A DNA stretch of 63,877 nt from an uncultured Clostridium sp. (GCA_900553785.1 USES01000004.1:1-63877); one strand, 5' to 3'. Numbered from the stretch's first letter, positions 5,114-49,264 are shown. Numbers and translations are program-made. Notes: generated by a model from the letters alone, not told the origin.

Positions 5114-5129
5114 AAATTTAATTAAATTT
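5114..5129 (-). promoter_or_regulatory. Perfect 16-bp palindrome AAATTTAATTAAATTT abutting the SD of the mini-ATPase gene
   Basis: Read directly. It lies 1 nt from GGAGGA and 24 nt downstream of the -10. Confidence 0.7.
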
Positions 5130-5153
5130 GAATTGTGGTAATACCACAAGTCT

Positions 5154-5182
5154 ATTATAACACTAATTGCAATTTATGTCAA
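5154..5182 (-). promoter_or_regulatory. Sigma-A promoter of the mini-ATPase gene
   Basis: On the minus strand: TTGACA, 17 nt, TATAAT preceded by TGt (extended -10). Confidence 0.65.
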
Positions 5183-5282
5183 GAAAGGTGATTTGATGTG
5201 CAATGAATTTCAAAAATATATAGATTGCTCAAAATATATATGATATAATCGCATTAGTGAAAACAAAAGAGGAGACTTTAGA

Positions 5283-6386
5283 ATGAAAAGAATTAAAGAC
5301 TTTGTCAAAAGTGAGGTAGTATTATCTGTTGCTATTGTTCTTACAATAATAACATGTTTTTTTGTTCCAATAGATAAAGAATATTTAAATTATTTTGATT
5401 ATAATACCTTAATATCTTTATTCTGTATGTTGGCTGTCGTAGCCGGTTTAAAAAACACTAATGTGTTTGATTTAATGTCTAGAAAGCTAATAGGGATGTT
5501 TAAAACTAGGCGAGATGTAATATATGCCCTTGTGTTTGGAACTTTCTTTTTTGATATGATAGTGGCTAATGATATGTCACTTATTACCTTTTTACCACTT
5601 ACGTATTTGGTGTTACACTCAACTCAAAATGATAAATATTTAGCGTTCACTTTCATAATGCAAACAATTGCGGCTAATATGGGTGGAATGATTACACCAT
5701 ATGGAAATCCTCAAAACTTGTATTTATATTCGTATTATAATATACCTACTACTGAATTTTTTGGAATACTAATAATTCAATCTATAACAGTTGCGATTAT
5801 GCTTTGTTTGTGCTGTGCATTTGTTTCTAATGAGCCACTAAAGCTTAAAAGTGATGAGAGAATTGTAATAGATAAGAAAAAAACAATAATATATTCAATA
5901 CTATTTATATTAGTAATATTGAGTATATTTAGAGTGGTTCCACACATATTAGCATTAGCTATAGTAATAATAACTGTTATGGTTGTTGATATTAAAAGAT
6001 TTAAACAAGTAGATTATGCACTTATTGCAACTTTTTTTGTATTTTTTGTATTTTCTGGAAACATAGCTAGGATTTCAGTAATTAAAGATTTTATATCAAG
6101 AATAGTTGTGAATAATACTCTTCTTGCGGGAATAATTTCGTGTCAGGTAATAAGCAATGTTCCAACAGCAATATTTTTATCTAAATTTACTATGAATTAT
6201 AGGGACTTGTTAATATCCGTAAATATTGGATCACTTGGCATACTTATATCATCTCTTGCAAGCTTAATTACCTTGAAAGAGTTTTTGAAACATCAACCAA
6301 AGAATTTTTGGAAGTATTTAGGAATGTATACTTTTTACAATACAATGTTTCTGTTGGCATTATTGCTGGTAACACATCTCACATAG
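5283..6386 (+). CDS. Anion permease of the ArsB/NhaD (YbiR/CitMHS-like) superfamily
   Basis: Polytopic membrane protein with the GNPQN motif. Confidence 0.7.
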   Translation: MKRIKDFVKSEVVLSVAIVLTIITCFFVPIDKEYLNYFDYNTLISLFCMLAVVAGLKNTNVFDLMSRKLIGMFKTRRDVIYALVFGTFFFDMIVANDMSLITFLPLTYLVLHSTQNDKYLAFTFIMQTIAANMGGMITPYGNPQNLYLYSYYNIPTTEFFGILIIQSITVAIMLCLCCAFVSNEPLKLKSDERIVIDKKKTIIYSILFILVILSIFRVVPHILALAIVIITVMVVDIKRFKQVDYALIATFFVFFVFSGNIARISVIKDFISRIVVNNTLLAGIISCQVISNVPTAIFLSKFTMNYRDLLISVNIGSLGILISSLASLITLKEFLKHQPKNFWKYLGMYTFYNTMFLLALLLVTHLT

Positions 6387-6450
6387 CGAAATAAGGTGTA
6401 TTTACAAATAGTCGAAAATATAGTAAAATATATGCTTGGAGGACATAAAG

Positions 6451-8034
6451 ATGATTTTAACAAGTAATGTAAGTTTAAGGTTTGGAAAAAGAACTTTATT
6501 TGAAGATGTTAATTTGAAATTTACTGATGGTAATTGTTATGGTTTAATTGGAGCAAATGGAGCTGGTAAGTCTACATTTCTGAAAATTTTATCAGGAGAA
6601 ATAGAGACAACTACTGGTGAAGTAATAATGCCAAATAATGAAAGACTTTCTGTGTTGAAACAGGACCATTCTTTGTATGATAATGAAAAAGTATTAACAG
6701 CTGTAATAATGGGAAATAAAAAGCTATATCAACTTATGATAGATAGAGAAGCTATATATCTAAAGGAAGACTTTACAGATGAAGATGGAATACGTGCAGG
6801 AAAGCTAGAAGAAGAATTTGCCAAACTTAATGGTTGGGAGGCAGAAACTGATGCAGCCAAACTTTTAAGTGGATTAGGAGTTGAAACAGAAAACCATGAA
6901 AAATTAGTTAAGGATTTGAAGGAAGAAGATAAAGTAAAAGTATTGCTTGCTCAGGCTTTATTTGGAAATCCTGAAGTATTGTTACTAGATGAACCTACAA
7001 ACGGATTAGATAGACGTGCTATCGAGTGGTTACAGGAATTCTTAATAAATTTTGAAAATACAGTTATCGTTGTATCACATGATAGATATTTTTTGAATAA
7101 AGTTTGTACACACATTGCAGATATAGATTTTGGAAAAATACAATTATTTGTTGGTAACTATGATTTCTGGTATGAGTCTAGTCAGCTTATTCAACGTCAA
7201 ATGAAAGAGTCTAACAAAAAGAAAGAAGAAAAAATAAAAGAGTTGCAAGACTTCATAGCAAGATTTAGCGCAAATGCTTCTAAGTCAAAACAGGCTACAT
7301 CTAGGAAGAAAATGCTTGAAAAAATTGAGCTAGATGAGATTAAACCTTCAAGCAGAAGATATCCATATATAGACTTCAAGCCAGATAGAGATATAGGAAA
7401 TGAAGTGCTTCAAGTAAAAAATATTAGCAAAACAATAGATGGCGTAAATGTATTAGATAATGTTTCGTTTATAATGACTAAAGAAGATAAAATTGCTTTT
7501 ATTGGAGATAATAGCGTTGGAATATCTGCATTGTTTAGTATATTAGCAGGTGAAATGGAGCCAGACTCTGGAGAATTTAAGTGGGGCCAAACAGTAACTG
7601 AGAGTTACTTCCCAAGAGATAATTCAAAGTACTTTGATACGGATTTAAACTTAACTGAATGGCTAAGACAGTATTCAAAGATTAACGATGATACTTATGT
7701 TAGAGGGTATCTTGGAAGAATGTTGTTTTCTGGCGAAGAAAGCTTGAAAAAAGCAAATGTAATTTCTGGTGGCGAAAAGGTAAGATGCATGCTAACTAGA
7801 ATGATGTTGTCTGGTGCAAATGCTTTGATTTTTGACGAGCCAACAAATCATTTGGATATGGAAAGTATAACAGCTCTAAACGAAGGAATGAATAATTTTA
7901 AGGGTGTAATATTATTTAGATCATATGACCATCAGTTAGTACAAACTGTTGCAAATAGAATAATTGATGTAACACCAGGACATTTCGTAGATAGAAAAAC
8001 AACATACGATGAATATATTTCTAGTTTAAATTAA
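6451..8034 (+). CDS. ABC-F family ATPase (two NBDs, no TMD)
   Basis: Two Walker A / LSGGE-type / Walker B sets joined by a charged linker. Start moved to ATG 6451 downstream of GGAGGA (6438-6443). Confidence 0.9.
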   Translation: MILTSNVSLRFGKRTLFEDVNLKFTDGNCYGLIGANGAGKSTFLKILSGEIETTTGEVIMPNNERLSVLKQDHSLYDNEKVLTAVIMGNKKLYQLMIDREAIYLKEDFTDEDGIRAGKLEEEFAKLNGWEAETDAAKLLSGLGVETENHEKLVKDLKEEDKVKVLLAQALFGNPEVLLLDEPTNGLDRRAIEWLQEFLINFENTVIVVSHDRYFLNKVCTHIADIDFGKIQLFVGNYDFWYESSQLIQRQMKESNKKKEEKIKELQDFIARFSANASKSKQATSRKKMLEKIELDEIKPSSRRYPYIDFKPDRDIGNEVLQVKNISKTIDGVNVLDNVSFIMTKEDKIAFIGDNSVGISALFSILAGEMEPDSGEFKWGQTVTESYFPRDNSKYFDTDLNLTEWLRQYSKINDDTYVRGYLGRMLFSGEESLKKANVISGGEKVRCMLTRMMLSGANALIFDEPTNHLDMESITALNEGMNNFKGVILFRSYDHQLVQTVANRIIDVTPGHFVDRKTTYDEYISSLN

Positions 8035-8037
8035 AGT

Positions 8038-8052
8038 AAAAGAGTCTTAAGG
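8038..8052 (+). repeat. Left copy of a 15-nt direct repeat flanking relE (AAAAGAGTCTTAAGG)
   Basis: Matches 8406-8420 at 14 of 15 positions. Confidence 0.75.
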
Positions 8053-8060
8053 CTCTTTTA
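8038..8060 (+). terminator. Terminator after the ABC-F gene
   Basis: AAGAG-N-CTTAAGG-CTCTT hairpin plus a T-run. Confidence 0.6.
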
Positions 8061-8124
8061 TTTTATATAGCAAAAGCCCTAAAACTTATACATTTAATGA
8101 GGTAAAAGAGGAGTTGGGGTTATA

Positions 8125-8394
8125 GTGAAATATAACGTTGTATTTTCAGAAAGAGCAAAAAAGCAATTAAAAAAACAAGATAAGCATGTAGTTGCATTAA
8201 TAATAGGCTGGTTTGAAAAGAATATTCACGGGTGCGAAAACCCAAGGCAACATGGAAAAGGCTTAGTGGAAAACAAATCTGGGGAGTGGAGATATCGTAT
8301 AGGAGATTATAGAGCGATATGCGAAATTAAAGATAAAGAACTTATAGTGTTGGCTTTGGAAATTTGCCACAGAAAAGAAATATATGATTGGTAG
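8125..8394 (+). CDS. relE: RelE/ParE-family type II toxin with no adjacent antitoxin
   Basis: 89 aa. WRYRIGDYRAICEIKDKELIVLALEICHRKEIY matches the RelE/StbE core. GTG start with AAGAGGAG SD. Confidence 0.85.
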   Translation: MKYNVVFSERAKKQLKKQDKHVVALIIGWFEKNIHGCENPRQHGKGLVENKSGEWRYRIGDYRAICEIKDKELIVLALEICHRKEIYDW

Positions 8395-8405
8395 CATGAA
8401 AGTCC

Positions 8406-8420
8406 AAAAAGAGCCTTAAG
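8406..8420 (+). repeat. Right copy of the 15-nt direct repeat (AAAAGAGCCTTAAGG)
   Basis: Lies inside the hairpin AGAGCCTTAAG / CTTAAAGCTCT downstream of relE. Confidence 0.75.
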
Positions 8421-8442
8421 GTTGTCTTAAAGCTCTGCAATT

Positions 8443-9057
8443 TTATTTATAATATTCATTTATTAAATCATCTATTTGTTCAACTGTTATAGCCTCATCA
8501 AGTTTATGTAAAATATTTGAGTTTTTATCTAAGAAATACGTTTTTGGTATTGTACTTGCTTCGGGATCAATAGCCTTGCGTATTACTCTTCCAAAGTCTA
8601 ATAATACTTCAGTATCAAAATCTACGGTTCCACCTTCTAACAAATCAAGCAGCCCATCAATTCCGTTATCTTTAAATTCATGTGCTATAAAAACTATATT
8701 TACATCTTTATCATCTTTATATTTTTTAATTATATCATTTAAGGCTTGCATTTCAGTTGCACAGTTTGGACACCAAGAAGCCCACATAAACAAAATTGTA
8801 TTCTTACCTTCAAACATAGTTTTATCATAATAGTTTATAACTCTAATAGTTGAATTAGATTTTGTAGTTATGATTTGTGAATTGTCATCTTCATTAAATG
8901 TTATATCTGAATTATTTTTGTCATCATTTGTTGTATTTCCTGGATTAGCGGTTCCCCCATTACGTTCTTTATAGTCTGAAACAACTAAATATGCGCCAAA
9001 GCCAATTATTGCACATAATAATACACAAAGTATAACTATAATTATTTTTTTATTCAT
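8443..9057 (-). CDS. Membrane-anchored thioredoxin-fold thiol-disulfide oxidoreductase (TlpA/ResA-like)
   Basis: N-terminal TM helix and a WCPNC active site. Confidence 0.8.
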   Translation of the reverse strand: MNKKIIIVILCVLLCAIIGFGAYLVVSDYKERNGGTANPGNTTNDDKNNSDITFNEDDNSQIITTKSNSTIRVINYYDKTMFEGKNTILFMWASWCPNCATEMQALNDIIKKYKDDKDVNIVFIAHEFKDNGIDGLLDLLEGGTVDFDTEVLLDFGRVIRKAIDPEASTIPKTYFLDKNSNILHKLDEAITVEQIDDLINEYYK

Positions 9058-9117
9058 AAAATCACCTTTTACACTGACAAATTATATTACAAAAATCTCT
9101 AAAAAACAACAAAATAA

Positions 9118-9146
9118 TTGAAAAAACATGAGTGTTAATATATAAT
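9118..9146 (+). promoter_or_regulatory. Sigma-A promoter of the 9172-13017 operon
   Basis: TTGAAA, 17 nt, TATAAT. Confidence 0.6.
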
Positions 9147-9171
9147 TAGTCTGTTAAATAGGAGTTAGTTT

Positions 9172-9675
9172 ATGAACAACATTGAGCATATAAAATACAC
9201 ATACAAGCATAGGAAAATAGTTTTGTTTTTAGCAAATAAGTATGTAAAAAATAAAAAAGAAGAGATAATAAATCAACTTAAAAAACATGATATGGATAAG
9301 ATGTTTTTATACCTTTTTTATAACAAGAAAGATGCATCAAACATTCATAGATCTTTTACTTCACATCATGAAAACGAGCTACCTAAGAATTATGTGGATT
9401 ATGTTGAAATGGTATTAGATTGGGAAAGTGCAAGGTATACTAAACCAGATAAACCATTAAATGCTTATGATACGTTATATAAGTACTATCCTGATATGGA
9501 AGAAAATGTGTTGCCAATACTTAAAGAGTTTGGACTAGATATGTCCAGACAAGATGCAGAAGAAGACGTTCTTGAGTATGCAAAAAGTTTGGATAACACA
9601 TCTACCAAAGATATTGAAAATGAAATGATTCAAAGTATTGAAGATATATTTGATTGTTTTAGTAAAGAGGAGTAA
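9172..9675 (+). CDS. Hypothetical protein with an HD-like motif (DUF5662-like)
   Basis: ORF with SD. KKHDMDK and SHHEN motifs. Family assignment from memory only. Confidence 0.6.
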   Translation: MNNIEHIKYTYKHRKIVLFLANKYVKNKKEEIINQLKKHDMDKMFLYLFYNKKDASNIHRSFTSHHENELPKNYVDYVEMVLDWESARYTKPDKPLNAYDTLYKYYPDMEENVLPILKEFGLDMSRQDAEEDVLEYAKSLDNTSTKDIENEMIQSIEDIFDCFSKEE

Positions 9676-9678
9676 AAA

Positions 9679-10071
9679 ATGGATATTAGGGAATATGACA
9701 TAAAAGCTTTAGCATATATAGGAGACGCAGTTTACGAATTGTATGTAAGAAAACACATAATGGAAAATAGTCACGAACAAGTAAATAAGCTTCACAAAAA
9801 AGCTATTAAATATGTAAGTGCTAAAGCTCAGGCACATGTTATAGCAGTGTTAGAGAATAAATTTACGAACGAGGAACAAGCTATATTTAAAAGAGGAAGA
9901 AATGCTGTATCTAATACTGTGCCAAAGAATACTGATGTTATAACATATAAAATTGCTACGGGATTTGAGGCAGTCATTGGGTATCTGTATTTAATTAACG
10001 ATACTGCAAGACTTGATTATATACTAGCAGAATCTATTCAGGCGATAGAAAATAAAAAGGAGGAAATTTAG
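9679..10071 (+). CDS. mrnC: Mini-ribonuclease 3
   Basis: LAYIGDAVYELYVR, KRGRNA and PKNTD motifs align with B. subtilis Mini-III (YazC). Confidence 0.9.
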   Translation: MDIREYDIKALAYIGDAVYELYVRKHIMENSHEQVNKLHKKAIKYVSAKAQAHVIAVLENKFTNEEQAIFKRGRNAVSNTVPKNTDVITYKIATGFEAVIGYLYLINDTARLDYILAESIQAIENKKEEI

Positions 10072-10811
10072 TGCTACAAGTATCAGATATATCCAAGAGT
10101 TTTGGAAATGTAGAGGCAGTAAAAAATGTATCTTTTGAAGCTAAGAATGGAAGAATTCTTGGAATCATTGGAAAAAATGGTGCGGGTAAGTCTACAATTT
10201 TTAGGGTAATTTTAGATATACTTGAACCGGATTCTGGAGAAGTTATATTAGATGGTAAAAAATATAATATTTTATCTAGTAATAAAGTCGGCTTTTTACC
10301 TGAAGAAGGTAGCCTTAATAGTGAACTTACAGTCTATGAGCAAATGTGTTTTTATGGAAGTCTTAGAGGTATGACTGAAGATGAAGTTTCAGAAGAATTA
10401 TTCAAATGGTTAGAAAAGTTTGAAATAGTAGAGTATTTTAATAGAAAAATAAAAGAACTTAGTAAGGGTAACAGACAACGCCTACAGTTTATAGTATCAG
10501 TGCTACACAATCCAGAAGTGGTAATATTAGATGAGCCTTTTTCTGGACTAGATCCACTTGGTGTAGAGATGTTTAAAAAAATACTTATTGAATTAAAACA
10601 AAAGGATAAGATAATTATTTTTTCATCCCATAGAATGGATCATGTTGAACAATTTTCTGATGATATAGTAATATTAAATAGTGGTAAAATAGTTTTAAAA
10701 GGTGATTTAAAAACTGTTAAAACACAATATATGGTTGAACATGGTGACAACAGTGTGACGTTAAACGATATGTTTATAAAACTTCTAGGAGGTGACGCAA
10801 ATGTTCAATAA
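10071..10811 (+). CDS. ABC transporter ATP-binding protein
   Basis: GKNGAGKST Walker A, LSKGNRQR signature, ILDEP Walker B. GTG start overlaps the mrnC stop. Confidence 0.9.
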   Translation: MLQVSDISKSFGNVEAVKNVSFEAKNGRILGIIGKNGAGKSTIFRVILDILEPDSGEVILDGKKYNILSSNKVGFLPEEGSLNSELTVYEQMCFYGSLRGMTEDEVSEELFKWLEKFEIVEYFNRKIKELSKGNRQRLQFIVSVLHNPEVVILDEPFSGLDPLGVEMFKKILIELKQKDKIIIFSSHRMDHVEQFSDDIVILNSGKIVLKGDLKTVKTQYMVEHGDNSVTLNDMFIKLLGGDANVQ

Positions 10812-13017
10812 AAATGTAACTAATGTAGCGAGATTTGACTTTTTAAATACTATGAAGAGCAAGGGTTTCATAATATTAAACATTGTGCTATGCATACTTG
10901 TCGTAGTTGCTATAAACCTTTCTAGTATAATTAGCTTATTTAAGTCTAGCGGAATAATTCATTCTAATGATTATGTTATAGAAGTATGGGATACTCAAGG
11001 AACATTTTTTAAGGATTTGGCTGAGAATAAAAATGATGACTTAATAAAAGAAGTTAAGAGTGCGGACAAAAAAGTAGAATATAATTACGAGAATATTGAT
11101 TCGAAAACAATAGGTATAAATGTAGAAAATGATGACACTGGAATAATTAAAAGTGCTGAAATTATAAGTAAAGACATTATTTCAGATGATGTGACAGAAT
11201 ATATTACAAATACTTTAACAAAAATAAGAAATAAAACAATAGAGAATAAATATCAAATATCAGAAGGTGATTCTAAGTTGTATAAAGAGAATGTTGAATT
11301 AAAAGAGACAATATTATCTAATGCCAAGAATCAAAATCAATTGACAGGAATTTTATCAACTATAATTGGATATATAATATTCATGTTGGTAATGACAATT
11401 ACAACTACTGTAGCATCTAGTATAGCTAATGAAAAAACTTCAAAAAGTGCAGAATATATTTTAAGTACAATTCCTTCAAAAGATTATTTAAATGGAAAAG
11501 TTTTAGCTGCTAATTTAAAAACAATATTAACGATAATTCTAATAATATTCTACGTTTTAATGGGATTAGTTTTAAACACAGCTATTATGCCGTCAGGCAT
11601 TACAGGAGCAGACTCAATATCTAGTGATTTTAGTGCATTAGGTGGTCAGAAAATAGAATTTAATGGATTTGTGTATTTGGCTATAATAATATTTATGATA
11701 TTTATTACAAATACCCTTATTTCGTATATACAAGCAGGTTTGGCATCTAGAATTAAAAGTATAAGTGAGTTAGACAGTGCAATAATGCTTCCTACAGTAA
11801 TACTTGTGGTTGCATATTTCATTTCAAATATGTTGCCAAATACAAGCAGTATTTTGACTAATATATTAGCTTGTATACCTATACTTTCTATGTACATATT
11901 ACCAACTGCGTATATGTTAAATAAAGTTAGTATAATAGTTATAACTATATCATTTGCGGTATTGTTAATTACATTAGTAATTGTATACAAAGTTGTTTCT
12001 AGCAAGTTCAAAAATAATCTTTTGGATTTAGGAAAGAAAAAACTAGAAAAAGAAGATGAAGAAGTTGCAATAAAAAGAGCAGAGGAAAAAAAGTTATTTA
12101 GCGTTAAATTAAAAAAGTTTGTTATGTGTGTGGCTTTTTCACTTATACTATCAATAACTTTAGGAAATACTTTTGGGGTTATTCCATATTTTACTAATAA
12201 TGAGAACTTAAAACTTGTTTTAAATTCATTAGTTTTTGTTATATATATTGGAGTACCAGCCTTAGTACTAAGTAAATTATTTTCTAACACATCAAAGGTA
12301 AAAAAAGATAAAAAGGTTCAAGAACAGCAAAGAAGAGAAAAAATAAAATGGTACCTGATTGGTCTTGTGGGTCTTGTGATAGCTCAGATTATTAACACGA
12401 TCTTTGTATATGTTTTTAATATTAACCAGAGTCAAGCAATGGAAGTTGCACTAACAGTACCATCTACTTTGACAGGAATAATATTGTTTGTTGTATATTT
12501 AGCTTTAATTCCAGCTATATTTGAGGAGCTATTGTTTAGAAAAGTTATACTAAGTGGTGCAAAGCAATTTGGAGATATATTTGCAATATTGTTTACATCT
12601 ATATTGTTTGGTTTATTCCACCAAAATTTACAACAAATACTTGGTACTGCGCTCATAGGTGCAGTGTTGGCTATAGTTACACTTAAGACGGGGGATATAA
12701 AAACTTCAATGTGTATACATTTTACAAACAATTTATTTGCAACCTTGGTACAAATTATATATACACAAATGGGTAATGGCAATATAACTACGACGTCTTT
12801 AGTATGTATTTCTCTTGTTTTAGTAATAGCGATATTTGTATTTATAGGTCTAGTTTTACTAATTAAGATATTGATTACTAAAAAAGGAACACTTAAAATT
12901 TCTACTGATGAAGAAAAATGTAAGGTAAAACTAACAAGTATTTTTGCAAATTACTATGTTTTAATATTGTTTATAACGATGTTACTTACTACAATACTAA
13001 ATTCGAAAGTAAGCTAA
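10801..13017 (+). CDS. Fusion of an ABC-2 type permease and a CPBP (CAAX/Abi) intramembrane protease
   Basis: The N-terminal half has one TM, a large loop and a TM bundle. After a KKKLEKEDEE linker the C-terminal half carries the CPBP motifs EELLFRK, FGLFH and HFTNN. Start moved to ATG 10801 behind AGGAGGTGA. Confidence 0.8.
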   Translation: MFNKNVTNVARFDFLNTMKSKGFIILNIVLCILVVVAINLSSIISLFKSSGIIHSNDYVIEVWDTQGTFFKDLAENKNDDLIKEVKSADKKVEYNYENIDSKTIGINVENDDTGIIKSAEIISKDIISDDVTEYITNTLTKIRNKTIENKYQISEGDSKLYKENVELKETILSNAKNQNQLTGILSTIIGYIIFMLVMTITTTVASSIANEKTSKSAEYILSTIPSKDYLNGKVLAANLKTILTIILIIFYVLMGLVLNTAIMPSGITGADSISSDFSALGGQKIEFNGFVYLAIIIFMIFITNTLISYIQAGLASRIKSISELDSAIMLPTVILVVAYFISNMLPNTSSILTNILACIPILSMYILPTAYMLNKVSIIVITISFAVLLITLVIVYKVVSSKFKNNLLDLGKKKLEKEDEEVAIKRAEEKKLFSVKLKKFVMCVAFSLILSITLGNTFGVIPYFTNNENLKLVLNSLVFVIYIGVPALVLSKLFSNTSKVKKDKKVQEQQRREKIKWYLIGLVGLVIAQIINTIFVYVFNINQSQAMEVALTVPSTLTGIILFVVYLALIPAIFEELLFRKVILSGAKQFGDIFAILFTSILFGLFHQNLQQILGTALIGAVLAIVTLKTGDIKTSMCIHFTNNLFATLVQIIYTQMGNGNITTTSLVCISLVLVIAIFVFIGLVLLIKILITKKGTLKISTDEEKCKVKLTSIFANYYVLILFITMLLTTILNSKVS

Positions 13018-13075
13018 ATTATAGCTTGTAACATAATTCTCCTTAGATAATATAATATCTTAAGGGGGATTTTTT

Positions 13076-13477
13076 ATGGAATGTGAAAAAGACGTTTTAA
13101 AACCATGTACATATATTGCAGAGAATAATAACATGTGTGTTACTAACAAAGAAAAATATATGCCAATTCAGTCATTGGGACCGGAAATTTATACTTTTAT
13201 ATATAAAGTGGTAGAGATAAACTTAAATAAACACATAAAACAAAACAATATGCCTAAATGTATTGCTAAAGATGAATTTAATTTGATTGTAAATGATTGT
13301 ATGTGTGATTTAACTAGACAAGAGAAAAGTTATAAAGAGATGCTAAAGTCTCGCTCAACTGGAATAGATGATGATTCAAGAGCTTTTTGCAATAATTGTA
13401 ATGGCCTTTTAAAGTCTGTTATAGAGATAGCACTTATTACATCATTGTTAAATGGCGGATGTATGTTTTGTTACTAA
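13076..13477 (+). CDS. Cys-rich hypothetical protein (10 Cys, ends GGCMFCY)
   Basis: ORF with AAGGGGGA SD. No recognised family. Confidence 0.6.
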   Translation: MECEKDVLKPCTYIAENNNMCVTNKEKYMPIQSLGPEIYTFIYKVVEINLNKHIKQNNMPKCIAKDEFNLIVNDCMCDLTRQEKSYKEMLKSRSTGIDDDSRAFCNNCNGLLKSVIEIALITSLLNGGCMFCY

Positions 13478-13538
13478 AAAATTGAAGTGTGAAACAGTTT
13501 TATTGGTTTGTTTCACGCTTTTTTAAGTATAAAGAAAG

Positions 13539-13567
13539 TTGAAAGTTTACGTATTTTGCTATATAAT
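13539..13567 (+). promoter_or_regulatory. Sigma-A promoter of ogg
   Basis: TTGAAA, 17 nt, TATAAT. Confidence 0.6.
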
Positions 13568-13586
13568 AACAGTGAGGTAAAAGGTT

Positions 13587-14435: not shown

Positions 14436-14437
14436 AT

Positions 14438-14995: not shown

Positions 14996-15011
14996 TAGTT
15001 TTTAATAACGT

Positions 15012-15051: not shown

Positions 15052-15052
15052 C

Positions 15053-17586: not shown

Positions 17587-17603
17587 GTATCCTCCTTATA
17601 AAT

Positions 17604-18083
17604 TTATATATTTTCGTTAATTACAGTTTTTACGTTGTTTACATCTGATGTCATGATTAAAACTACATACTCACCATTTACGTAAACTATACCGTCTGTT
17701 GCAATTTTATATTGTTCTGCATCATAGTTGTTCATTGAGTCCATTGCTTGTTTTTTTATTGCCACAAGTTGAGACTCAAGAGTTTTTCTATCATCTGTAT
17801 TTTTAACTTTAAATATGGCAATTGTGTCAACAAAATAAGAAGTAGAATTTGCCATAAATATATAGTCATCTGCTTTAGTAGTATCAATTCCGTATCTCAT
17901 ATCTAAGTCAGAAGCGCTTCTTGCAATCATATCTGATGGAAGAGATACTTTTTCAGATATTTTCTTGTACAGCTCTTCACAAGTAACGTTTGCTTTTGGT
18001 GTTTTATTCATATTCATAGCAATAAGTACAGCCGCTAAAACAACTACTATGATTCCTAAAATTATTAAAATACTTTTTTTCAT
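17604..18083 (-). CDS. DUF4358-like exported protein
   Basis: Start moved to ATG 18083 behind GGAGG. N-terminal TM/signal. Resembles the ORF at 58904..59428. Confidence 0.65.
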   Translation of the reverse strand: MKKSILIILGIIVVVLAAVLIAMNMNKTPKANVTCEELYKKISEKVSLPSDMIARSASDLDMRYGIDTTKADDYIFMANSTSYFVDTIAIFKVKNTDDRKTLESQLVAIKKQAMDSMNNYDAEQYKIATDGIVYVNGEYVVLIMTSDVNNVKTVINENI

Positions 18084-24667: not shown

Positions 24668-24676
24668 TGATATAAT
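24668..24676 (+). promoter_or_regulatory. Extended -10 element TGATATAAT
   Basis: TGn-TATAAT read directly, 22 nt upstream of the palindrome. Confidence 0.5.
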
Positions 24677-24698
24677 TGTATCAGTTCAATGGTGAAGC

Positions 24699-24716
24699 AT
24701 TTAATAATTATTAAAT
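24699..24716 (+). promoter_or_regulatory. Perfect 18-bp palindrome ATTTAATAATTATTAAAT abutting the SD
   Basis: Read directly. GAAGGAGG follows 1 nt later. Confidence 0.7.
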
Positions 24717-24733
24717 GAAGGAGGAAGCGGTAT

Positions 24734-31044: not shown

Positions 31045-31263
31045 TTAAAAAATTTCTTCCTCACTTTTTTCTATTTTTAATATATCATTTGGAGTACATT
31101 CAAGTACCTCACAAAGTTTTTCTAATGTATCAAATCTCATTCCTTTTGTATTGTTATTCATAACATCACTCATTGCCTGATAACTGCATCCCATTTCCTT
31201 TATTAGCCAATACTTAGTTTTTTTCTTTTCCTTTAGAATTTCTTTAACATTTATATATAGCAT
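31045..31263 (-). CDS. Small XRE-family helix-turn-helix regulator
   Basis: Cro/C1-type HTH (TKYWLIKEMGCSYQAMSDVMNN). Start moved to ATG 31263 behind AGGTG. Confidence 0.8.
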   Translation of the reverse strand: MLYINVKEILKEKKKTKYWLIKEMGCSYQAMSDVMNNNTKGMRFDTLEKLCEVLECTPNDILKIEKSEEEIF

Positions 31264-40522: not shown

Positions 40523-40551
40523 AAAGGAGCCAAATTACAAGGCCCCTTTTT
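40522..40551 (+). terminator. Terminator
   Basis: AAGGAGCC / GGCCCCTT stem plus a T-run. Confidence 0.6.
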
Positions 40552-40634
40552 AATTTGCAAAAATTATAATGTTATGGTATAATATAATCATAGTATTTAA
40601 TACTAATAAAAATTTAAAAATTTTTTATGAAAGG

Positions 40635-40650
40635 CACAACAATTGTTGTG
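40635..40650 (+). promoter_or_regulatory. Perfect 16-bp palindrome CACAACAATTGTTGTG abutting the SD
   Basis: Read directly. TAAGGGA follows immediately. Confidence 0.7.
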
Positions 40651-40664
40651 TAAGGGACATTAAA

Positions 40665-41033: not shown

Positions 41034-41109
41034 TACTCCTACTTCTTTGCGTGTAATTGCTTACTTTCTGTAATTCTGGTGACTATATATTTACATAAAG
41101 ATGCATTTG

Positions 41110-41118
41110 TGGTATAAT
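41110..41118 (+). promoter_or_regulatory. Extended -10 element TGGTATAAT
   Basis: Read directly, 24 nt upstream of the palindrome. Confidence 0.5.
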
Positions 41119-41142
41119 ACCCAAGTAGAGTACTTTTACTAA

Positions 41143-41156
41143 AATAAAATTTTATT
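41143..41156 (+). promoter_or_regulatory. Perfect 14-bp palindrome AATAAAATTTTATT abutting the SD
   Basis: Read directly. GGAGGA follows immediately. Confidence 0.65.
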
Positions 41157-41170
41157 GGAGGAAAAACATT

Positions 41171-42424: not shown

Positions 42425-42429
42425 CTGCA

Positions 42430-42470
42430 AAAAAATCAACCAAAATCAACTATTTTGGTTGATTTTTTTT
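42430..42470 (+). terminator. Terminator
   Basis: ATCAACCAAAAT / ATTTTGGTTGAT 12-bp stem and a T8 run. Confidence 0.85.
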
Positions 42471-42540
42471 ATATATAATGATATAATAATAAAGCGTTTG
42501 TGTGAAATACACAAACAAAAATAAAGGGAGGTGAATTCAA

Positions 42541-42954
42541 GTGCCAACATTTGCACAATTAGTTAGAAAAGGAAGACAAGATAAAACTACAAAATCTAAG
42601 TCTCCAGCTTTACAAAGAGGATATAACTCTCGTAAAAAAACTGCGACTGATGTATCATCACCACAAAAACGTGGAGTATGTACAGTAGTTAAAACTCAAA
42701 CACCTAAAAAGCCTAACTCTGCCCTAAGGAAAGTAGCCAGAGTAAAACTTACAAATGGAATGGAAGTTTCTGCTTATATTCCAGGTATAGGTCACAATCT
42801 ACAAGAGCATAGCGTTGTTCTAATCAGAGGTGGAAGAGTAAAAGATCTTCCAGGTGTAAGATACCATATAGTTAGAGGTGTTCTTGATACAGCTGGCGTT
42901 GCCGGACGTGTTCAAGCAAAATCTAAGTATGGTGCTAAAAAAGGTAAGAAATAA
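42541..42954 (+). CDS. rpsL: 30S ribosomal protein S12
   Basis: [11 protein letters not shown]...[10 protein letters not shown] sequence. GTG start behind GGGAGGTG. Confidence 0.97.
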
Positions 42955-43033
42955 TCTTTTTTAGTTTTGGTGCTTGATTTATATAGTAAATTTAAAGCAC
43001 TGACAAAATGTTAAAATTTTGAGTACCGAATAA

Positions 43034-43522
<489 letters not shown>

Positions 43523-43555
43523 TAACCAAAGAGATTTTAAGGAGGAAAGTAAAAA

Positions 43556-45640
43556 ATGGCAGGTAGAGAATATCCTCTTGAGAGGACAAGAAATATCGGT
43601 ATCATGGCTCACATCGATGCTGGTAAAACTACTACAACAGAAAGAATACTTTTCTATACAGGTAAAACTCACAAAATAGGTGAGGTTCACGATGGTGGAG
43701 CTACAATGGACTGGATGGCTCAAGAGCAAGAAAGAGGTATAACAATTACTTCTGCTGCAACAACTTGTTTCTGGAGAAACAATAGAATAAACATTATTGA
43801 TACTCCAGGTCACGTTGACTTTACAATAGAGGTTGAGCGTTCTTTAAGAGTACTTGACGGTTCAGTTACAGTACTTTGTGCAAAAGGTGGCGTACAACCA
43901 CAATCTGAGACTGTATGGAGACAGGCTAATAAATATAAAGTACCAAGAATGGTATACGTTAATAAAATGGATATCATGGGTGCAGATTTCTTTAATTGTG
44001 TTGAACAATTAAGAACTCGTCTTGGTGCAAATGCAGTACCTATTCAATTGCCTATTGGAAAAGAAGATACTTTTAAAGGTATCGTTGACCTAGTTGAAAT
44101 GAAAGCATATGTATATTATGATGAACTAGGAAAAGATATCAGAGAAGAAGAAATTCCAGAAGACATGAAAGAAATGGCTGAAAAATATAGAACAGAACTT
44201 CTAGATCACATTGCAGAATTTGATGAAGAAGTTATGATGAAGTATCTTGATGGCGAAGAACTTACAATTGATGAAATCAAAAAATGTATAAGACAATCTA
44301 CAATTGAAAACAAGATGGTAGCAGTAACTTGCGGCACATCTTATAAAAACAAGGGTGTTCAAAAACTACTTGATGCAATAGTAGATTACATGCCATCACC
44401 TTTAGATGTTGAACAAATTAAAGGTGTTACACCAGATGGTAAAGAAGAAGAAAGAATTTCTTCAGATTCTGAACCATTTGCAGCATTAGCATTTAAGATA
44501 GCTACTGACCCTTATGTTGGAAAACTTACATTCTTTAGAGTGTACTCTGGTACACTAGATAGTGGCTCATATGTATACAATGCAAATAAAGATAAGAAAG
44601 AACGTATTGGTCGTATACTTCAAATGCATGCTAATGAAAGAAAAGATATTGACAAAGTTTATTCTGGAGATATCGCAGCAGCAGTTGGCTTAAAAGAAGT
44701 TTATACTGGAGATACATTGTGTGATGAACAACACCCAATTATTCTTGAGTCAATAGAATTCCCAGAGCCAGTTATAGAAATTGCTATCGAGCCTAAGTCT
44801 AAAGCAGACCAAGAAAAAATGGGTATAGCATTAGCAAAACTTGCTGAAGAAGATCCATCATTTAAGACTTATACTAACCAAGAAACTGGTCAAACAATAA
44901 TTGCAGGTATGGGAGAACTTCACCTAGATATTATAGTAGATAGAATGAAGAGAGAATTCCATGTTGAAGCAAATGTTGGTGCTCCACAAGTTTCTTACAA
45001 GGAAACAATTAGAAAACCTGTTAAGGTTGAAGGAAAATTCATCCGTCAATCAGGTGGACGTGGACAATATGGTCATGTATGGCTAGAAGTTACACCAAAC
45101 GAACCAGGTAAAGGTTATGAATTTGAGTCTAAAATCGTTGGTGGTGTTGTTCCTAAAGAATACGTTAAACCAACTGATGAAGGTGTAAGAGAAGCTATGA
45201 AATCTGGTATACTTGCAGGGTACCCTGTAGTAGATGTTAAGGTTGCATTAGTAGATGGTTCTTACCACGATGTTGACTCATCTGAAGCAGCGTTTAAAGT
45301 TGCTGGTTCTATGGCATTTAAAGAAGCTTGCCGTCAAGGTGGAGCAGTACTATTAGAGCCAATAATGAAAGTTGAAGTAACAGTTCCTGAGGAATACATG
45401 GGAGATGTTATAGGAGACATAAACTCAAGACGTGGAAAAATGGAAGGTATGGAATCACAACATGGTTCACAACTTATCCGTGCATTTATCCCATTGTCTG
45501 AGATGTTTGGATATGCAACTGACCTAAGAAGTAAAACTCAGGGTAGAGGTACATATTCTATGGAACCAAGTCATTATGAAGAAGTTCCAAAGTCAGTTCT
45601 AGAAGCAATAGTTGGTTCTAGAGCCAAAAAACAAGACTAA
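43556..45640 (+). CDS. fusA: Elongation factor G
   Basis: [17 protein letters not shown], 694 aa. Confidence 0.97.
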
Positions 45641-45677
45641 TTAAATTACATAATTTTGTCAAAAACGATTAAAAAGC

Positions 45678-45706
45678 TTGCATTATTTTAAGTAATATAG
45701 TAAAAT
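45678..45706 (+). promoter_or_regulatory. Internal sigma-A promoter ahead of tuf
   Basis: TTGCAT, 17 nt, TAAAAT. Confidence 0.55.
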
Positions 45707-45764
45707 ATCCTAAAATAATGCAGTAGCATTAATCGTAAAAGAATATAATAAGGAGGATTTAAAA

Positions 45765-46967
45765 ATGGCAAAAGCAAAGTTCGAAAGAACAAAACCACAC
45801 TGTAATGTTGGTACTATTGGTCACGTTGACCATGGTAAAACATCTTTAACAGCTGCTATAACTAAAGTTGCAGCTTTAATGGGTGGAGCAGAGTTTAAAG
45901 CATACGATCAAATCGATGCAGCTCCAGAAGAAAGAGCAAGAGGTATCACTATTTCTACAGCTCACGTTGAATATGAAACACCTAACAGACACTATGCACA
46001 CGTTGACTGCCCAGGTCACGCAGACTATGTTAAAAACATGATCACTGGTGCAGCACAAATGGATGGTGCTATCCTAGTTGTTTCTGCAGCAGATGGCCCA
46101 ATGCCACAAACAAGAGAGCACATACTACTTGCAAGACAAGTTGGTGTTCCTTATATCGTAGTATTTATGAATAAAGTAGACCAAGTTGATGATCCAGAAC
46201 TTCTTGAATTAGTTGAAATGGATATCCGTGATCTATTAAATAAATACGAATTCCCTGGAGACGAAGTACCTATAATAAAAGGTTCTGCTTTAAAAGCACT
46301 TGAATGTACTTCTACAGATCCTAATGCTCCAGAATATGCTCCAATTCGTGAGTTATTAGATGCAATAGACAAATACATCCCAACTCCTGAAAGAGCTACA
46401 GACAAACCTTTCTTAATGCCAATTGAAGACGTATTCACAATCACTGGTCGTGGTACAGTTGTAACTGGTAGAGTAGAAAGAGGAGAATTAAAAGTTGGTG
46501 ACGAAGTTGAAATCGTTGGTCTAACTGATGAAAAGAAGAAAACAGTAGTAACTGGTATAGAAATGTTCAGAAAATCTCTTGATTCAGCAGAAGCTGGAGA
46601 TAACGCTGGTGTTCTTCTAAGAGGAATTCAAAGAAACGAAGTTGAACGTGGTCAAGTTCTTGCTAAACCAGGAACAATTCACCCACACACTGAATTTGAA
46701 GCTGAAGTTTACATACTAACTAAAGAAGAAGGTGGAAGACATACTCCATTCTTCAATGGTTACAGACCTCAATTCTATTTCAGAACAACTGACGTTACTG
46801 GTGTAATTGATTTACCAGCAGATAAAGAAATGGTAATGCCAGGAGATAACGTAACAATGAAGATTAAGTTAATAACTCCTATCGCTATCGAAAAAGGATT
46901 AAAATTCGCTATTCGTGAAGGTGGTAGAACAGTTGGTGCAGGTTCTGTATCTAACATTATAGCTTAA
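45765..46967 (+). CDS. tuf: Elongation factor Tu
   Basis: [20 protein letters not shown]. 400 aa. Confidence 0.98.
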
Positions 46968-46987
46968 GCTTATTATAAGTTATTTAA

Positions 46988-47018
46988 CACTAGAGCATAA
47001 AGCTCTAGTGCTTTTTTT
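46988..47018 (+). terminator. Terminator of the str operon
   Basis: CACTAGAGC / GCTCTAGTG stem and a T7 run. Confidence 0.85.
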
Positions 47019-47045
47019 GTGGCTGTTACCGCCTAAGCGTCAAAA

Positions 47046-47074
47046 TTGACATAATATCTAGCGTGTGTTATAAT
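47046..47074 (+). promoter_or_regulatory. Consensus sigma-A promoter of the LRR1-LRR2 operon
   Basis: TTGACA, 17 nt, TGtTATAAT. Confidence 0.7.
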
Positions 47075-47099
47075 AAATAACGGGTTATAACGAAGATCC

Positions 47100-47115
47100 A
47101 TATTTAATTAAATAT
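47100..47115 (+). promoter_or_regulatory. Perfect 16-bp palindrome ATATTTAATTAAATAT abutting the SD
   Basis: Read directly. AGGAGGA follows immediately. Confidence 0.75.
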
Positions 47116-47129
47116 AGGAGGAATAAGTT

Positions 47130-47981
47130 GTGAAAATTGCAAGTGGAGAAAAAGTAAGAAATATTTTTTTCGATAAGGCTGGTGTTGCTATACCTGGTCG
47201 AGAATTACCTGACGATTTAATGGTGCTTGGAGATTTAAATTTAGGAGGCACGAATGTAGAGAGACTACCAAATGGCTTAGCAGTAAAAGGGAACTTGATC
47301 TTAAATAATACAAAAATAAGGAAGTTACCCAGTGATATCATAGTTGACGGTTCTATCAATTTAGAAGGTTCACTAATAGAGTTACTACCAGATAATTTAG
47401 AAGTTGAAGGTAATTTATGGCTTGGTAACACGAAAATTAAATTATTGCCAAGAAAATTAATTGTGCATGGTTCAATTAGTTTAAATGACTCTTCTATAGA
47501 GTGGTTGCCTGCTGATTTAGTTGTAGAAAGAAATCTTTGGCTTACAAATACAAAAATAAGATTGCTACCAGATAATTTTACTGTAGGAGAGAATCTTTGG
47601 ATAGACCATACAAAAATTAAGTGGTTACCAGATAATTTAACAGTAAATGGAAGTCTATGGTTAGGTTATACACCCATAAGGTCATTACCAAGTAATCTTA
47701 CTGTAGGTAATAGTTTGTGGCTTATTAACGCAAAGATTAAAACGTTACCCGAAGATATTATGGTAGGAGGATCAATTGACTTAAGTAATTCGCAATTAGA
47801 ATATCTACCAGATAATTTAGATGTTGGTGCTAGTCTTTGGCTAAGTAATACAAAGATAAGAACATTGCCTAAAAATCTTACTGTAGGTGGAGATCTTTGG
47901 TTAGGCGGAACATCAATAGATGTATTGCCAGAAGATTTAATGGTAAGAGGAGAAATTTATTTTAGCTCATGGAGGAATTAA
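47130..47981 (+). CDS. LRR-like solenoid protein 1 (12 full 20-residue repeats, no signal peptide)
   Basis: Repeat consensus LPxNLxVxGxLWLxxTxIxx. GTG start behind AGGAGGA. Confidence 0.8.
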   Translation: MKIASGEKVRNIFFDKAGVAIPGRELPDDLMVLGDLNLGGTNVERLPNGLAVKGNLILNNTKIRKLPSDIIVDGSINLEGSLIELLPDNLEVEGNLWLGNTKIKLLPRKLIVHGSISLNDSSIEWLPADLVVERNLWLTNTKIRLLPDNFTVGENLWIDHTKIKWLPDNLTVNGSLWLGYTPIRSLPSNLTVGNSLWLINAKIKTLPEDIMVGGSIDLSNSQLEYLPDNLDVGASLWLSNTKIRTLPKNLTVGGDLWLGGTSIDVLPEDLMVRGEIYFSSWRN

Positions 47982-47983
47982 GT

Positions 47984-48688
47984 ATGAAAATGACAGGTGA
48001 TGATATTAGAAAAGCATTTTTCGATGAAATTGGCTTTATAAAAGCCGGAGAGAGAATACCTGATCATTTGGTTGTAAGTGGTGACCTTGATTTAACTGAT
48101 ATGTGTATACGGTTATTGCCAAATAATCTTACTGTAGAGGGTAGTCTTTGGCTCGGAAATACTCCAATAGAGTTTTTGCCATCAGATTTAAAAGTAGGAG
48201 GTTCTATTGATTTAAGTGACTCTGATATAAAGCGCCTACCAGATAACTTTGTTGTCGAGGGCGATCTTTGGCTGAATAATACAAAGATAAAGGAATTGCC
48301 AGCTAATTTTACCGTAAAAGGTAATCTTTGGCTTACAAATACATTGGTGAAAGAACTGCCAAATAATTTGAAAGTTTGGAAAAGACTTTGGATTATTGGT
48401 ACACCAATAATTAAGTTACCGAATAATTTGACGGTAAATGGCAATCTTGATTTGAGTAATAAACCAATAGAAGTTTTACCAGATAATTTAACCGTACACG
48501 GTAATTTGGATTTAAGGGGCTCAAAAATAGAAAAAATTCCAGTTAATCTTTGTGTAGATGGAAACATTTACTTAAGCAAAAGATTAACAAAAAAGGCAAT
48601 TGAGAATATGTTCAAAAATTCTCTGGTGAACGGTGAAATTCATTTAAGTTCTGTGGATAAGGTAAAATCTGATATCTTAAACAATTGA
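47984..48688 (+). CDS. LRR-like solenoid protein 2 (about 8 repeats)
   Basis: Start moved to ATG 47984 behind GGAGGA, 2 nt after the LRR1 stop. The N-terminus DIRKAFFDEIGF parallels LRR1 VRNIFFDKAGV. Confidence 0.8.
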   Translation: MKMTGDDIRKAFFDEIGFIKAGERIPDHLVVSGDLDLTDMCIRLLPNNLTVEGSLWLGNTPIEFLPSDLKVGGSIDLSDSDIKRLPDNFVVEGDLWLNNTKIKELPANFTVKGNLWLTNTLVKELPNNLKVWKRLWIIGTPIIKLPNNLTVNGNLDLSNKPIEVLPDNLTVHGNLDLRGSKIEKIPVNLCVDGNIYLSKRLTKKAIENMFKNSLVNGEIHLSSVDKVKSDILNN

Positions 48689-48700
48689 ATTTATTAGCAG

Positions 48701-48750
48701 AAAGCATAAGAATATGTTTTAATTAACATTTTCTTATGCTTTTTGTTTTG
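48701..48750 (+). terminator. Terminator after LRR2
   Basis: AAAGCATAAGAA / TTCTTATGCTTT stem plus a T-run. Confidence 0.75.
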
Positions 48751-48758
48751 CATGTAAA

Positions 48759-48787
48759 TTGAATTAAATTTTGTGATGTGATATAAT
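48759..48787 (+). promoter_or_regulatory. Sigma-A promoter of LRR3
   Basis: TTGAAT, 17 nt, TGaTATAAT. Confidence 0.6.
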
Positions 48788-48809
48788 GGCTTAAATTTAA
48801 TAGAAATCC

Positions 48810-48825
48810 ATATTTAATTAAATAT
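48810..48825 (+). promoter_or_regulatory. Second copy of the palindrome ATATTTAATTAAATAT
   Basis: Identical 16-mer with the same TCC 5' flank, 2 nt before AGGGGGA. Confidence 0.75.
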
Positions 48826-48841
48826 TTAGGGGGAATTTAGC

Positions 48842-49090
48842 ATGAGATTATCACTTAAGAGGTTACAAGAATTGATGGCTGCAGATGATGGAAATCTTGA
48901 TTTGAAATGTACACCGCTTGATTCTTTACCGGATAATCTTACTGTAGAAGGTAATCTTGATTTAAGGTACACAGACGTCGAAACATTACCTAGTAGCCTC
49001 ATAGTGAAAGGTTGGTTAGATTTGAGACACACGAAAATTAAAGTGTTGCCGGATAATGTTGTAGTCCTTGGAAAAGTTTATTTTAATTAA
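48842..49090 (+). CDS. LRR-like solenoid protein 3 (short, 3 repeats)
   Basis: Same 20-residue repeat (LPDNLTVEGNLDLRYTDVET...). Confidence 0.7.
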   Translation: MRLSLKRLQELMAADDGNLDLKCTPLDSLPDNLTVEGNLDLRYTDVETLPSSLIVKGWLDLRHTKIKVLPDNVVVLGKVYFN

Positions 49091-49123
49091 AATAAAAAAG
49101 TATTAAGTGATTGTAGTTGAAGT

Positions 49124-49165
49124 AAAAAAATCATAAGGGATAATAAAAGTCCCTTATGATTTTTT
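49124..49165 (+). terminator. Terminator after LRR3
   Basis: ATCATAAGGGA / TCCCTTATGAT 11-bp stem and a T-run. Confidence 0.85.
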
Positions 49166-49200
49166 ACATTAGTATTTTCACAGTGCAAAGTACATTTAAA

Positions 49201-49229
49201 TTGACATAACATTGATGCTGCGATATAAT
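49201..49229 (+). promoter_or_regulatory. Consensus sigma-A promoter
   Basis: TTGACA, 17 nt, TATAAT. Confidence 0.65.
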
Positions 49230-49254
49230 TGAAAAGTCAAAAATAAAGTTCATT

Positions 49255-49264
49255 TTTAATTAAA
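49255..49264 (+). promoter_or_regulatory. TTTAATTAAA palindrome core in the leader of the 49284 ORF
   Basis: Same core and same distance from the -10 as in the LRR leaders. The flanks are imperfect. Confidence 0.55.

Follow-up and report, generated by a model that had tools for sequence, protein, structure and literature searches.

The stretch of DNA analyzed here, called the window below, comprises 63,877 nt at 30.5% G+C and comes from an uncultured Clostridium sp. (GCA_900553785.1, USES01000004.1:1-63877). It encodes, among others, typA, leuS, rpsL-rpsG-fusA-tuf, plsX-acpP-rnc, an MBOAT/DHHW operon, SpoIID and pilin-like proteins. Many of its proteins have no Pfam match, and its genes have their closest named relatives in "uncultured Bacilli", Mycoplasma and Tenericutes metagenome-assembled genomes (MAGs). 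About eight of these genes carry, between the Shine-Dalgarno sequence (SD) and a strong promoter, a short, perfectly symmetric A/T-only dyad with AATT at its centre. Because this dyad is conserved across sister species as much as the promoter is, it is a real control element.

On the minus strand, the leader of a small ATPase gene (mini-ATPase, 4632-5099) contains the 16-nt dyad AAATTTAATTAAATTT at 5114-5129, between a -10 hexamer at 5154-5159 and the SD GGAGG at 5108-5112. All other main elements lie on the plus strand. In the leader of gene 24734 (-10 at 24671-24676, SD at 24718-24724), an earlier reading of the window made from the sequence alone had correctly placed a palindrome at 24699-24716, but the full perfect palindrome, CATTTAATAATTATTAAATG, has 20 nt and spans 24698-24717. 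Upstream of gene 40665 (-10 at 40578-40583), the dyad CACAAC-AATT-GTTGTG (40635-40650) abuts the SD (40652-40657), and a second, imperfect AT dyad is present at 40606-40628, 22 nt past the -10. The EctB-type aminotransferase gene carries AATAAAATTTTATT at 41143-41156 (-10 at 41113-41118, SD at 41157-41161). Two leucine-rich repeat (LRR) genes follow: LRR1, with ATATTTAATTAAATAT at 47100-47115 (-10 at 47069-47074, SD at 47116-47121), and LRR3, with the same 16-mer at 48810-48825 (-10 at 48782-48787, SD at 48828-48833); their leaders are duplicates that also share the 5' flank GAARATCC. The leader of gene 49284 contains the perfect 10-nt core TTTAATTAAA at 49255-49264 (-10 at 49224-49229, SD at 49269-49274). 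The present scan added an element overlooked in the sequence-only reading, the inverted repeat CTTTAA-TAAT-TTAAAG at 49938-49953, which is fused to the SD of gene 49966 and located 25 nt past the -10 (49907-49912).

All 13 strings and -10 hexamers reported earlier were found at their coordinates. Six leaders have 21-25 nt between the -10 and the dyad, while the dyad of 40665 lies 51 nt from its -10, as previously described. The SD had been said to start 0-2 nt past the palindrome throughout; this holds for six leaders (gaps of 1, 0, 1, 0, 0 and 2 nt) but not for 49284, where the gap is 4 nt. When the region from 40.4 to 51.4 kb was scanned for consensus promoters, the top ranks were taken by the promoters of LRR1 (12/12 with TG), 49284 (12/12), the aminotransferase (11/12 with TG), 49966, 40665 and LRR3. 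Overall, promoters of dyad genes have 10-12 of 12 consensus matches, most with an extended -10. Near-consensus promoters of this kind are typical where a repressor holds expression in check. Most leaders in the window have no A/T-only tract beside the SD, and the core genes cited earlier as lacking the element, such as typA and tuf, were indeed without it.

We then assessed whether the dyads exceed what base composition would produce. Over the whole window, perfect palindromes of at least 10 nt showed no excess (115 versus about 114 expected), and those of at least 16 nt were mildly high (7 versus 2.7). Within 50 nt upstream of curated starts, by comparison, palindromes of at least 14 nt were found in 7 of 67 leaders (0.5 expected) and palindromes of at least 16 nt in 5 of 67 (0.14 expected); neither count was reached in any of 2,000 dinucleotide shuffles. 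Since an A/U-rich block next to the SD might inflate this excess, the shuffle was restricted to AT-only runs, and the excess persisted (5 versus 0.66, P=2e-4). Of the 11 SD-adjacent palindromes, 8 had an AATT centre, compared with 13 of the 104 other palindromes of the window (P=4e-5); AATT does not rank first in frequency among A/T tetramers. The core TTTAATTAAA occurs six times in the window (1.8 expected), and four of these copies adjoin an SD, in agreement with the four leaders originally reported to share it. For inverted repeats with arms of at least 6 nt and any spacer, an excess was seen only at a 4-nt spacer (6 versus 0.7), spacers of 3 or 5-8 nt in leaders being at chance level, and the enrichment vanished once G.U pairs were permitted. 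The caution that AT-only palindromes arise easily is therefore borne out by the window-wide counts, which are near expectation, but not at the SD-adjacent position, which is enriched (P<1/2000). Equal frequency in shuffled sequence, the outcome that the sequence-only reading had set against its own proposal, was not what we found in the 67 leaders.

Orthologous leaders were compared among species at 46-79% protein identity, whose loci are designated by L numbers where they need to be told apart. Conservation in related genomes had been proposed as a check, and each ortholog group was found to keep its own dyad while other leader sequence diverges. Pooled pairwise identity was 94% for the -10 hexamer, 95% for the left arm, 89% for the centre and 90% for the right arm, compared with 62% for the spacer, 84% for the SD region and 58% from the SD to the ATG. 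By this measure purifying selection acts on the dyads as strongly as on the promoter. The mini-ATPase 16-mer AAATTTAATTAAATTT is identical in orthologs at 79, 74 and 63% protein identity. At 59% it is changed in the centre only (AACT), and at 46% (L118) positions 6 and 11 are flipped together, the centre is altered and one outer pair is mismatched; a single uncompensated T->G occurs in L094. The 24734 dyad preserves 19 of 20 nt in two loci at about 48% protein identity (L105 and L106), the single A->G being U.G-compatible. In 40665, the arms CACAAC/GTTGTG are invariant in three species as the centre goes from AATT to TATT to TGTT, and the AT dyad upstream is a perfect 18-mer, ATAAAAAAATTTTTTTAT, in L097. 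The aminotransferase dyad AATAAAATTTTATT is identical in four lineages, including L097, L094 and L100; in L099 its centre shows T->C and one outer base A->C, and 3 nt are inserted ahead of the SD. The LRR homolog of L099 has, at the same position, CATATTAAATTTAATATG, which is the LRR1 dyad with mirror positions 6 and 11 flipped and an extra C-G pair. The 49966 repeat is identical in L097 and carries a U.G-compatible A->G in its 3' arm in L099, and for 49284 the comparison was made at strain level. In the species represented by L090 and L099, the mini-ATPase leader keeps TTTAATTAAA and the LRR leader has TTAAATTTAA, so that two variants occur in one genome. Taken as a whole, the leader layout first noticed in the sequence-only reading is non-random and under purifying selection, which points to functional cis-elements in these leaders.

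The genes themselves had been described as accessory and unrelated. Most are syntenic in sister species and are thus not accessory: this applies to the mini-ATPase, the aminotransferase, 40665 and 24734, in sister or more distant species. Orthologs of the mini-ATPase (155 aa, 46-79% identity) adjoin the same glycosyltransferase and typA genes. Synteny of the aminotransferase and the 40665 membrane protein was seen in the rpsL loci of sister species, which were found by exact RpsL protein look-up, and 24734 with its 133-aa partner gene precedes the same DAGK-leuS pair in species whose proteins are only about 48% identical. Gene content differs between species only in the block that follows tuf. 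Nor are all the genes unrelated, as LRR1, LRR2 and LRR3 are paralogs of each other and of the L099 LRR gene; the identical 16-mer and common flank of LRR1 and LRR3 bear out the caveat that these two copies reflect duplication. The aminotransferase is a diaminobutyrate-2-oxoglutarate transaminase equivalog (NCBIfam TIGR02407, 580 bits versus a cut-off of 552). The mini-ATPase is predicted to be a truncated ABC nucleotide-binding domain (structure prediction with pLDDT 89.9), and a structure search with the 24734 protein returned no match. On these structural predictions, autoregulation by the dyad-gene products was rejected, and NCBIfam and PADLOC searches were uninformative on that question. 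Scanning genome contigs with the aminotransferase gave only homologs of at most 63% identity, outside the lineage, and scanning metagenomes with a mini-ATPase profile gave one locus.

The dyad is restricted in its taxonomic distribution. A dyad with a 4-nt spacer abutting the SD occurs 4 times in the window (0.3 expected) and 7 times in sister species (0.5 expected), mostly in orthologs. It was absent from 66 leaders of other low-GC Bacilli MAGs (0.5 expected) and at chance level in about 975 leaders of other Firmicute loci. A clostridial plasmid of 24.5% G+C showed a mild excess of short palindromes upstream of SDs (3 versus 0.67); with only this mild trend and chance levels in the other MAGs and the 975 leaders, a generic trait of AT-rich Firmicutes was rejected. 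The signal is confined to this genus. Such lineage specificity argues for a lineage-specific trans-acting partner, whether DNA or RNA is read. We also considered a universal viral or ribosome-binding-site (RBS) feature and rejected it, because the combination of dyad and SD in viral contigs matches two composition-matched controls, both in frequency and in the fraction of true RBSs.

Look-alikes were seen outside the genus. A distant Bacilli MAG (L009, 27% G+C) has TATAAT, 21 nt and the 18-nt AATT-centred palindrome TTATTATAATTATAATAA at 13316-13333, which runs into the SD of a gene for an unrelated 125-aa membrane protein. The 216-kb viral (jumbo-phage) contig IMGVR_UViG_3300019378_000951 (L123, L146, L159 and L160; 25-28% G+C) contains a AAAAATTAAATTAAATTT+(A)GGAGG unit, which in the 30 kb examined precedes about 10 of 28 genes. 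The exact mini-ATPase 16-mer is present there twice, and the unit sits at gene junctions with no constant distance to a promoter. This recurrent unit is either an extended RBS or a phage promoter.

Several other features were noted in the window. On the minus strand, the 12-nt palindrome TATAAATTTATA (17597-17608) abuts the AGGAGG of an operon-internal MBOAT gene and is probably due to chance, about 1.6-1.9 such leaders being expected. The TATA-centred CTTTTATATAAAAG (51114-51127, minus strand), upstream of gene 50498-51097, is likewise probably fortuitous, judging from its lack of conservation in L097 and L099. A 20-nt A/T palindrome, TTTATTTTAATTAAAATAAA, at 49077-49096 on the plus strand overlaps the LRR3 stop codon and is probably incidental, since a conventional terminator lies at about 49128-49166. 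In the mini-ATPase leader, a second inverted repeat, TTGTGGTAtTACCACAA (5133-5149, minus strand), lies where the transcript is predicted to begin; between orthologs, its arms change in concert (GGC..GCC, GTGG..CCAC, GTGA..TCAC), as for a 5'-terminal RNA stem-loop. The rpsL leader has a hairpin, GTTTGTGT-gaaa-TACACAAAC, just 3' of the promoter (42496-42516, plus strand), whose stem co-varies in L099 (TGTGC-gaa-GCACA). The 40665 leader may encode a six-codon upstream open reading frame (uORF), TTG TTG TGT AAG GGA CAT TAA (40629-40664, plus strand), which starts 8 nt past GAAAGG, contains the CACAAC dyad and ends 1 nt before the 40665 ATG. The frame, length and stop position of this putative uORF are preserved in L097 (LLWKEF*) and L099 (LLCKGH*), the latter with a synonymous substitution and another stop codon.

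Regarding the surroundings of the dyad genes, the block after tuf (47130-50469) consists of three LRR-type paralogs and two orphan genes, each with its own consensus promoter and terminator. Other gene combinations occupy this block in L097 (14581-16090) and L099 (14596-15864), and LRR2 is split into 51+170 aa in several strains. In L100, L110 and L111, an IS200/IS605-type Y1 transposase gene upstream of the aminotransferase replaces the window's 40665 gene (left of window position 41047), and the aminotransferase leader and dyad are intact. Six independent assemblies (L092, L094, L096, L107, L118 and L119) end 140-190 nt upstream of the mini-ATPase gene, and these repeated breaks suggest that the divergent intergenic region contains a repeat or is hypervariable in part. 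Variants of the same species occur in many human-gut metagenome assemblies, with a strain divergence of about 1.2%. In strains L003-L005, the left end of the window (1-1314, including the pilin-like gene 279-1244) is replaced by a different sequence and the CitMHS transporter gene (5283-6386) is divided into two open reading frames.

To explain the dyads, we favour the reading that they are operator-like cis-regulatory sites bound by one or more lineage-specific symmetric factors, to which we assign a probability of about 40%. In this model, one or more lineage-specific dimeric factors would recognize each dyad as a symmetric site of 10-20 bp, A/T-only and AATT-centred, which is flush with the SD and lies at about +16 to +35 relative to a sigma-A promoter of consensus strength. 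The bound factor would restrain a gene with a very strong promoter, either by blocking RNA polymerase just past promoter escape or, given the contact between site and SD, by interfering with the binding of 30S subunits to the nascent leader. Protein binding, a repressive effect and duplex DNA rather than RNA as the target are all inferred here. Only the genes with TTTAATTAAA (mini-ATPase, LRR1/3 and 49284) could plausibly share a factor. In favour of an operator, the symmetry is perfect through the centre, which a hairpin loop would not need, and the GC-containing hairpins close to the transcription start in the same leaders do co-vary. The AATT bias, the confinement of the excess to a 4-nt spacer, the conservation at the level of the -10 hexamer, the restriction to the lineage and the near-consensus promoters also count in its favour, as do the unstable RNA hairpins, the empty RNAalifold result and the lack of an Rfam match. 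Other observations weigh against it. The arms differ between genes and have no common half-site, so that several factors or a very loose specificity would be needed. No regulator gene lies beside any dyad gene within the 64-kb window; the nearby helix-turn-helix (HTH) genes are limited to one of Cro/C1 type (31045-31263) and one resembling FapR (at 51222). The dyad-gene products examined do not appear to be DNA binders, given the predicted ABC domain of the mini-ATPase and the 24734 protein without a structural match. Two independent mirror flips (in the L099 LRR and L118 mini-ATPase leaders) and two A->G changes that preserve U.G pairing suit base-pairing better than a fixed protein-DNA code, and the position of the dyad is tied to the SD as tightly as to the promoter. 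Of note, the gene at 31045-31263 (minus strand) encodes a stand-alone 72-aa Cro/C1-type HTH protein (HTH_26) and has an inverted repeat of its own in its leader; no other small protein of the window is a DNA-binding candidate, and no evidence connects this one with the dyads.

The main rival is an RNA element, which we regard as possible though doubtful: a weak A-U stem with an AAUU tetraloop directly upstream of the SD that would tune translation initiation or mRNA decay. An RNA-binding partner specific to the lineage would stabilize or read this stem, or else stacking on the SD:anti-SD helix would stabilize it. The dyad always lies within the predicted transcribed leader, 0-4 nt from the SD, and ortholog substitutions resemble those of a helix, with at least five centre-only changes, two flips of the loop-closing pair and two U.G-compatible A->G changes; terminal pairs are gained or lost, and changes cluster in the centre and at the helix ends. 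Arms that differ between genes would be expected of a structure-defined element. The 24734, 40665, 49966 and L099-LRR versions fold at -1.7 to -5.4 kcal/mol, and flanking bases can lengthen the stem into the SD in the LRR1, mini-ATPase and EctB leaders. However, the best-conserved AT-only hairpins are unstable alone (dG +0.5 to +1.9 kcal/mol), whole-leader folds are no better than those of shuffles (z-scores -1.9 to +1.5), and RNAalifold predicted no pairs (energy 0) for two well-sampled families. For the mini-ATPase family, covariation amounts to one event, reached by 76 of 500 shuffles. The lack of enrichment for other loop sizes or G.U pairs and the self-complementary AAUU, which no hairpin needs as its loop, also speak against it. 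These results do not support the autonomous 5' stem-loop with an AAUU loop that the sequence-only reading had offered as an equal option. Searching the whole window against Rfam 15 at gathering thresholds gave six tRNAs only, and no RNA family at the dyads. An SD-sequestering thermometer or insulator was rejected, as the unpaired probability of the SD shifts both ways between native and shuffled dyads, and a generic ribosome effect is impossible given the absence of the element from other AT-rich Firmicutes. A hitherto undescribed control system of this gut genus, in which dyads next to the SD of strongly promoted, mostly lineage-specific genes are read by a symmetric factor through shape or pairing more than through fixed bases, would explain why arms are gene-specific and symmetry and centre are kept; the factor could be an RNA hairpin-binding translational regulator or a DNA binder that reads the minor groove. 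We consider this rather unlikely.

The remaining explanations fare worse. An A/U-rich enhancer upstream of the SD, or an extended RBS, would place selection on an A/U-only tract and make the symmetry incidental or mutational, for instance through quasi-palindrome correction by template switching. Five leaders have 3' arms reading TTAAAT just upstream of the SD, and the recurrent unit of the jumbo phage, its two copies of the mini-ATPase 16-mer and the palindrome excess of the AT-rich plasmid would fit such a tract. We nevertheless judge it improbable, because symmetry is significant even against AT-only-run shuffles, the mirror flips keep symmetry rather than sequence, most window leaders have no such tract, and the viral combinations of dyad and SD are no commoner, and no more often true RBSs, than in controls. 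The model put forward initially, in which seven operators of one dimeric repressor mark a co-regulated accessory regulon, is very unlikely. It accounts for the common geometry and AATT centre and for the four leaders with the over-represented TTTAATTAAA. Yet arms aligned on the centre show no consensus beyond A/T-richness, only 4 of 8 carry TTTAATTAAA, each ortholog group retains a different dyad, and the two variants in the L090/L099 species coexist in one genome. Moreover, the genes are mostly conserved, syntenic and lineage-core, with LRR1 and LRR3 as duplicates, and three independent AATT dyads with the inner arm TTT/AAA are only mildly unlikely. The gene-to-gene differences between dyads thus do not support a single-repressor regulon, and a regulon of accessory genes is likewise not supported. 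We give almost no weight to chance, that is, to AT-only palindromes arising easily in 30% GC DNA without function. The near-expected window-wide counts, the non-conserved palindrome at 51114 and the expected number of 12-nt cases agree with it, whereas a positional enrichment that survives the strictest null, the AATT-centre bias and a cross-species conservation equal to that of the -10 hexamer do not; for six or seven main elements it is already contradicted.

To our knowledge, gene regulation in reduced, uncultured low-GC gut Bacilli is essentially uncharted. The dyads represent a class of cis-elements recognizable from sequence alone, on orphan genes with the strongest promoters of the region, and this association, together with their conservation, offers a concrete handle on the regulators of the lineage. 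They could help to predict conditional expression of orphan genes in the gut and to design expression tools for such organisms. They also illustrate that real A/T-only elements can be told apart from compositional noise by combining positional statistics with a comparison of orthologs.

Finally, we compared the dyads with known systems; a literature search on the motif and on SD-abutting AT palindromes found nothing relevant. A terminator scan placed sites downstream of tuf and of 49966 but had no hit at the dyads, ruling out an intrinsic terminator or attenuator (G+C-rich stem and U tract). Repetitive extragenic palindromes, miniature inverted-repeat transposable elements and insertion-sequence ends were also ruled out, as the dyads differ from one another, sit upstream of genes and keep orthologous positions across species. 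Short leader hairpins near the SD are known from ompA hp2, aprE/ermC-type stabilizers and fourU/ROSE elements. As in ompA, the mini-ATPase leader has an additional 5'-terminal hairpin, and a conserved CUUU(U) in the EctB leader could pair with GGAG, as in fourU elements. Those hairpins differ in being stable or SD-containing, with loops that are not self-complementary, whereas the dyads have AT-only stems with dG >= 0 and leave the SD outside. With the SD 0-4 nt outside the dyad and an inconsistent effect on accessibility, a fourU/ROSE thermometer was ruled out.

Among DNA operators, Fur/PerR, Rex, NrdR, ScoC, MntR/SloR and ComK boxes were dropped because their consensus sequences misfit in spacing (odd versus even) or in the defining G/C positions. 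The 24734 dyad TTTAATAATTATTAAA resembles the 18-bp A/T-rich ARG box TNTGAATWWWWATTCANW of ArgR/AhrC, but differs at the symmetric G and C that define ARG boxes, and the downstream genes are unrelated to arginine metabolism. The CodY box of low-GC Gram-positives, AATTTTCWGAAAATT, is an A/T-rich palindrome; some of its sites 3' of the transcription start block elongation, and its targets include amino-acid metabolism. CodY sites have 15 bp with odd symmetry around CWG, whereas the dyads are even, around AATT; the mini-ATPase site agrees with the box at about 11 of 15 positions by eye, which is a lead only. The CIRCE operator of HrcA in Firmicute heat-shock operons, TTAGCACTC-N9-GAGTGCTAA, has G and C in its arms, a spacer of 9 nt and the same sequence at every target, in contrast to the A/T-only gene-specific arms, 4-nt AATT spacer and non-chaperone genes of the dyads. 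The sequence does not match, and an identity with CIRCE/HrcA operators was thus ruled out, only the position being shared. Like CIRCE, which reportedly acts both as a DNA operator and as an mRNA leader element, the dyads are perfect inverted repeats between the transcription start and the SD, combined with a strong promoter and conserved across species.

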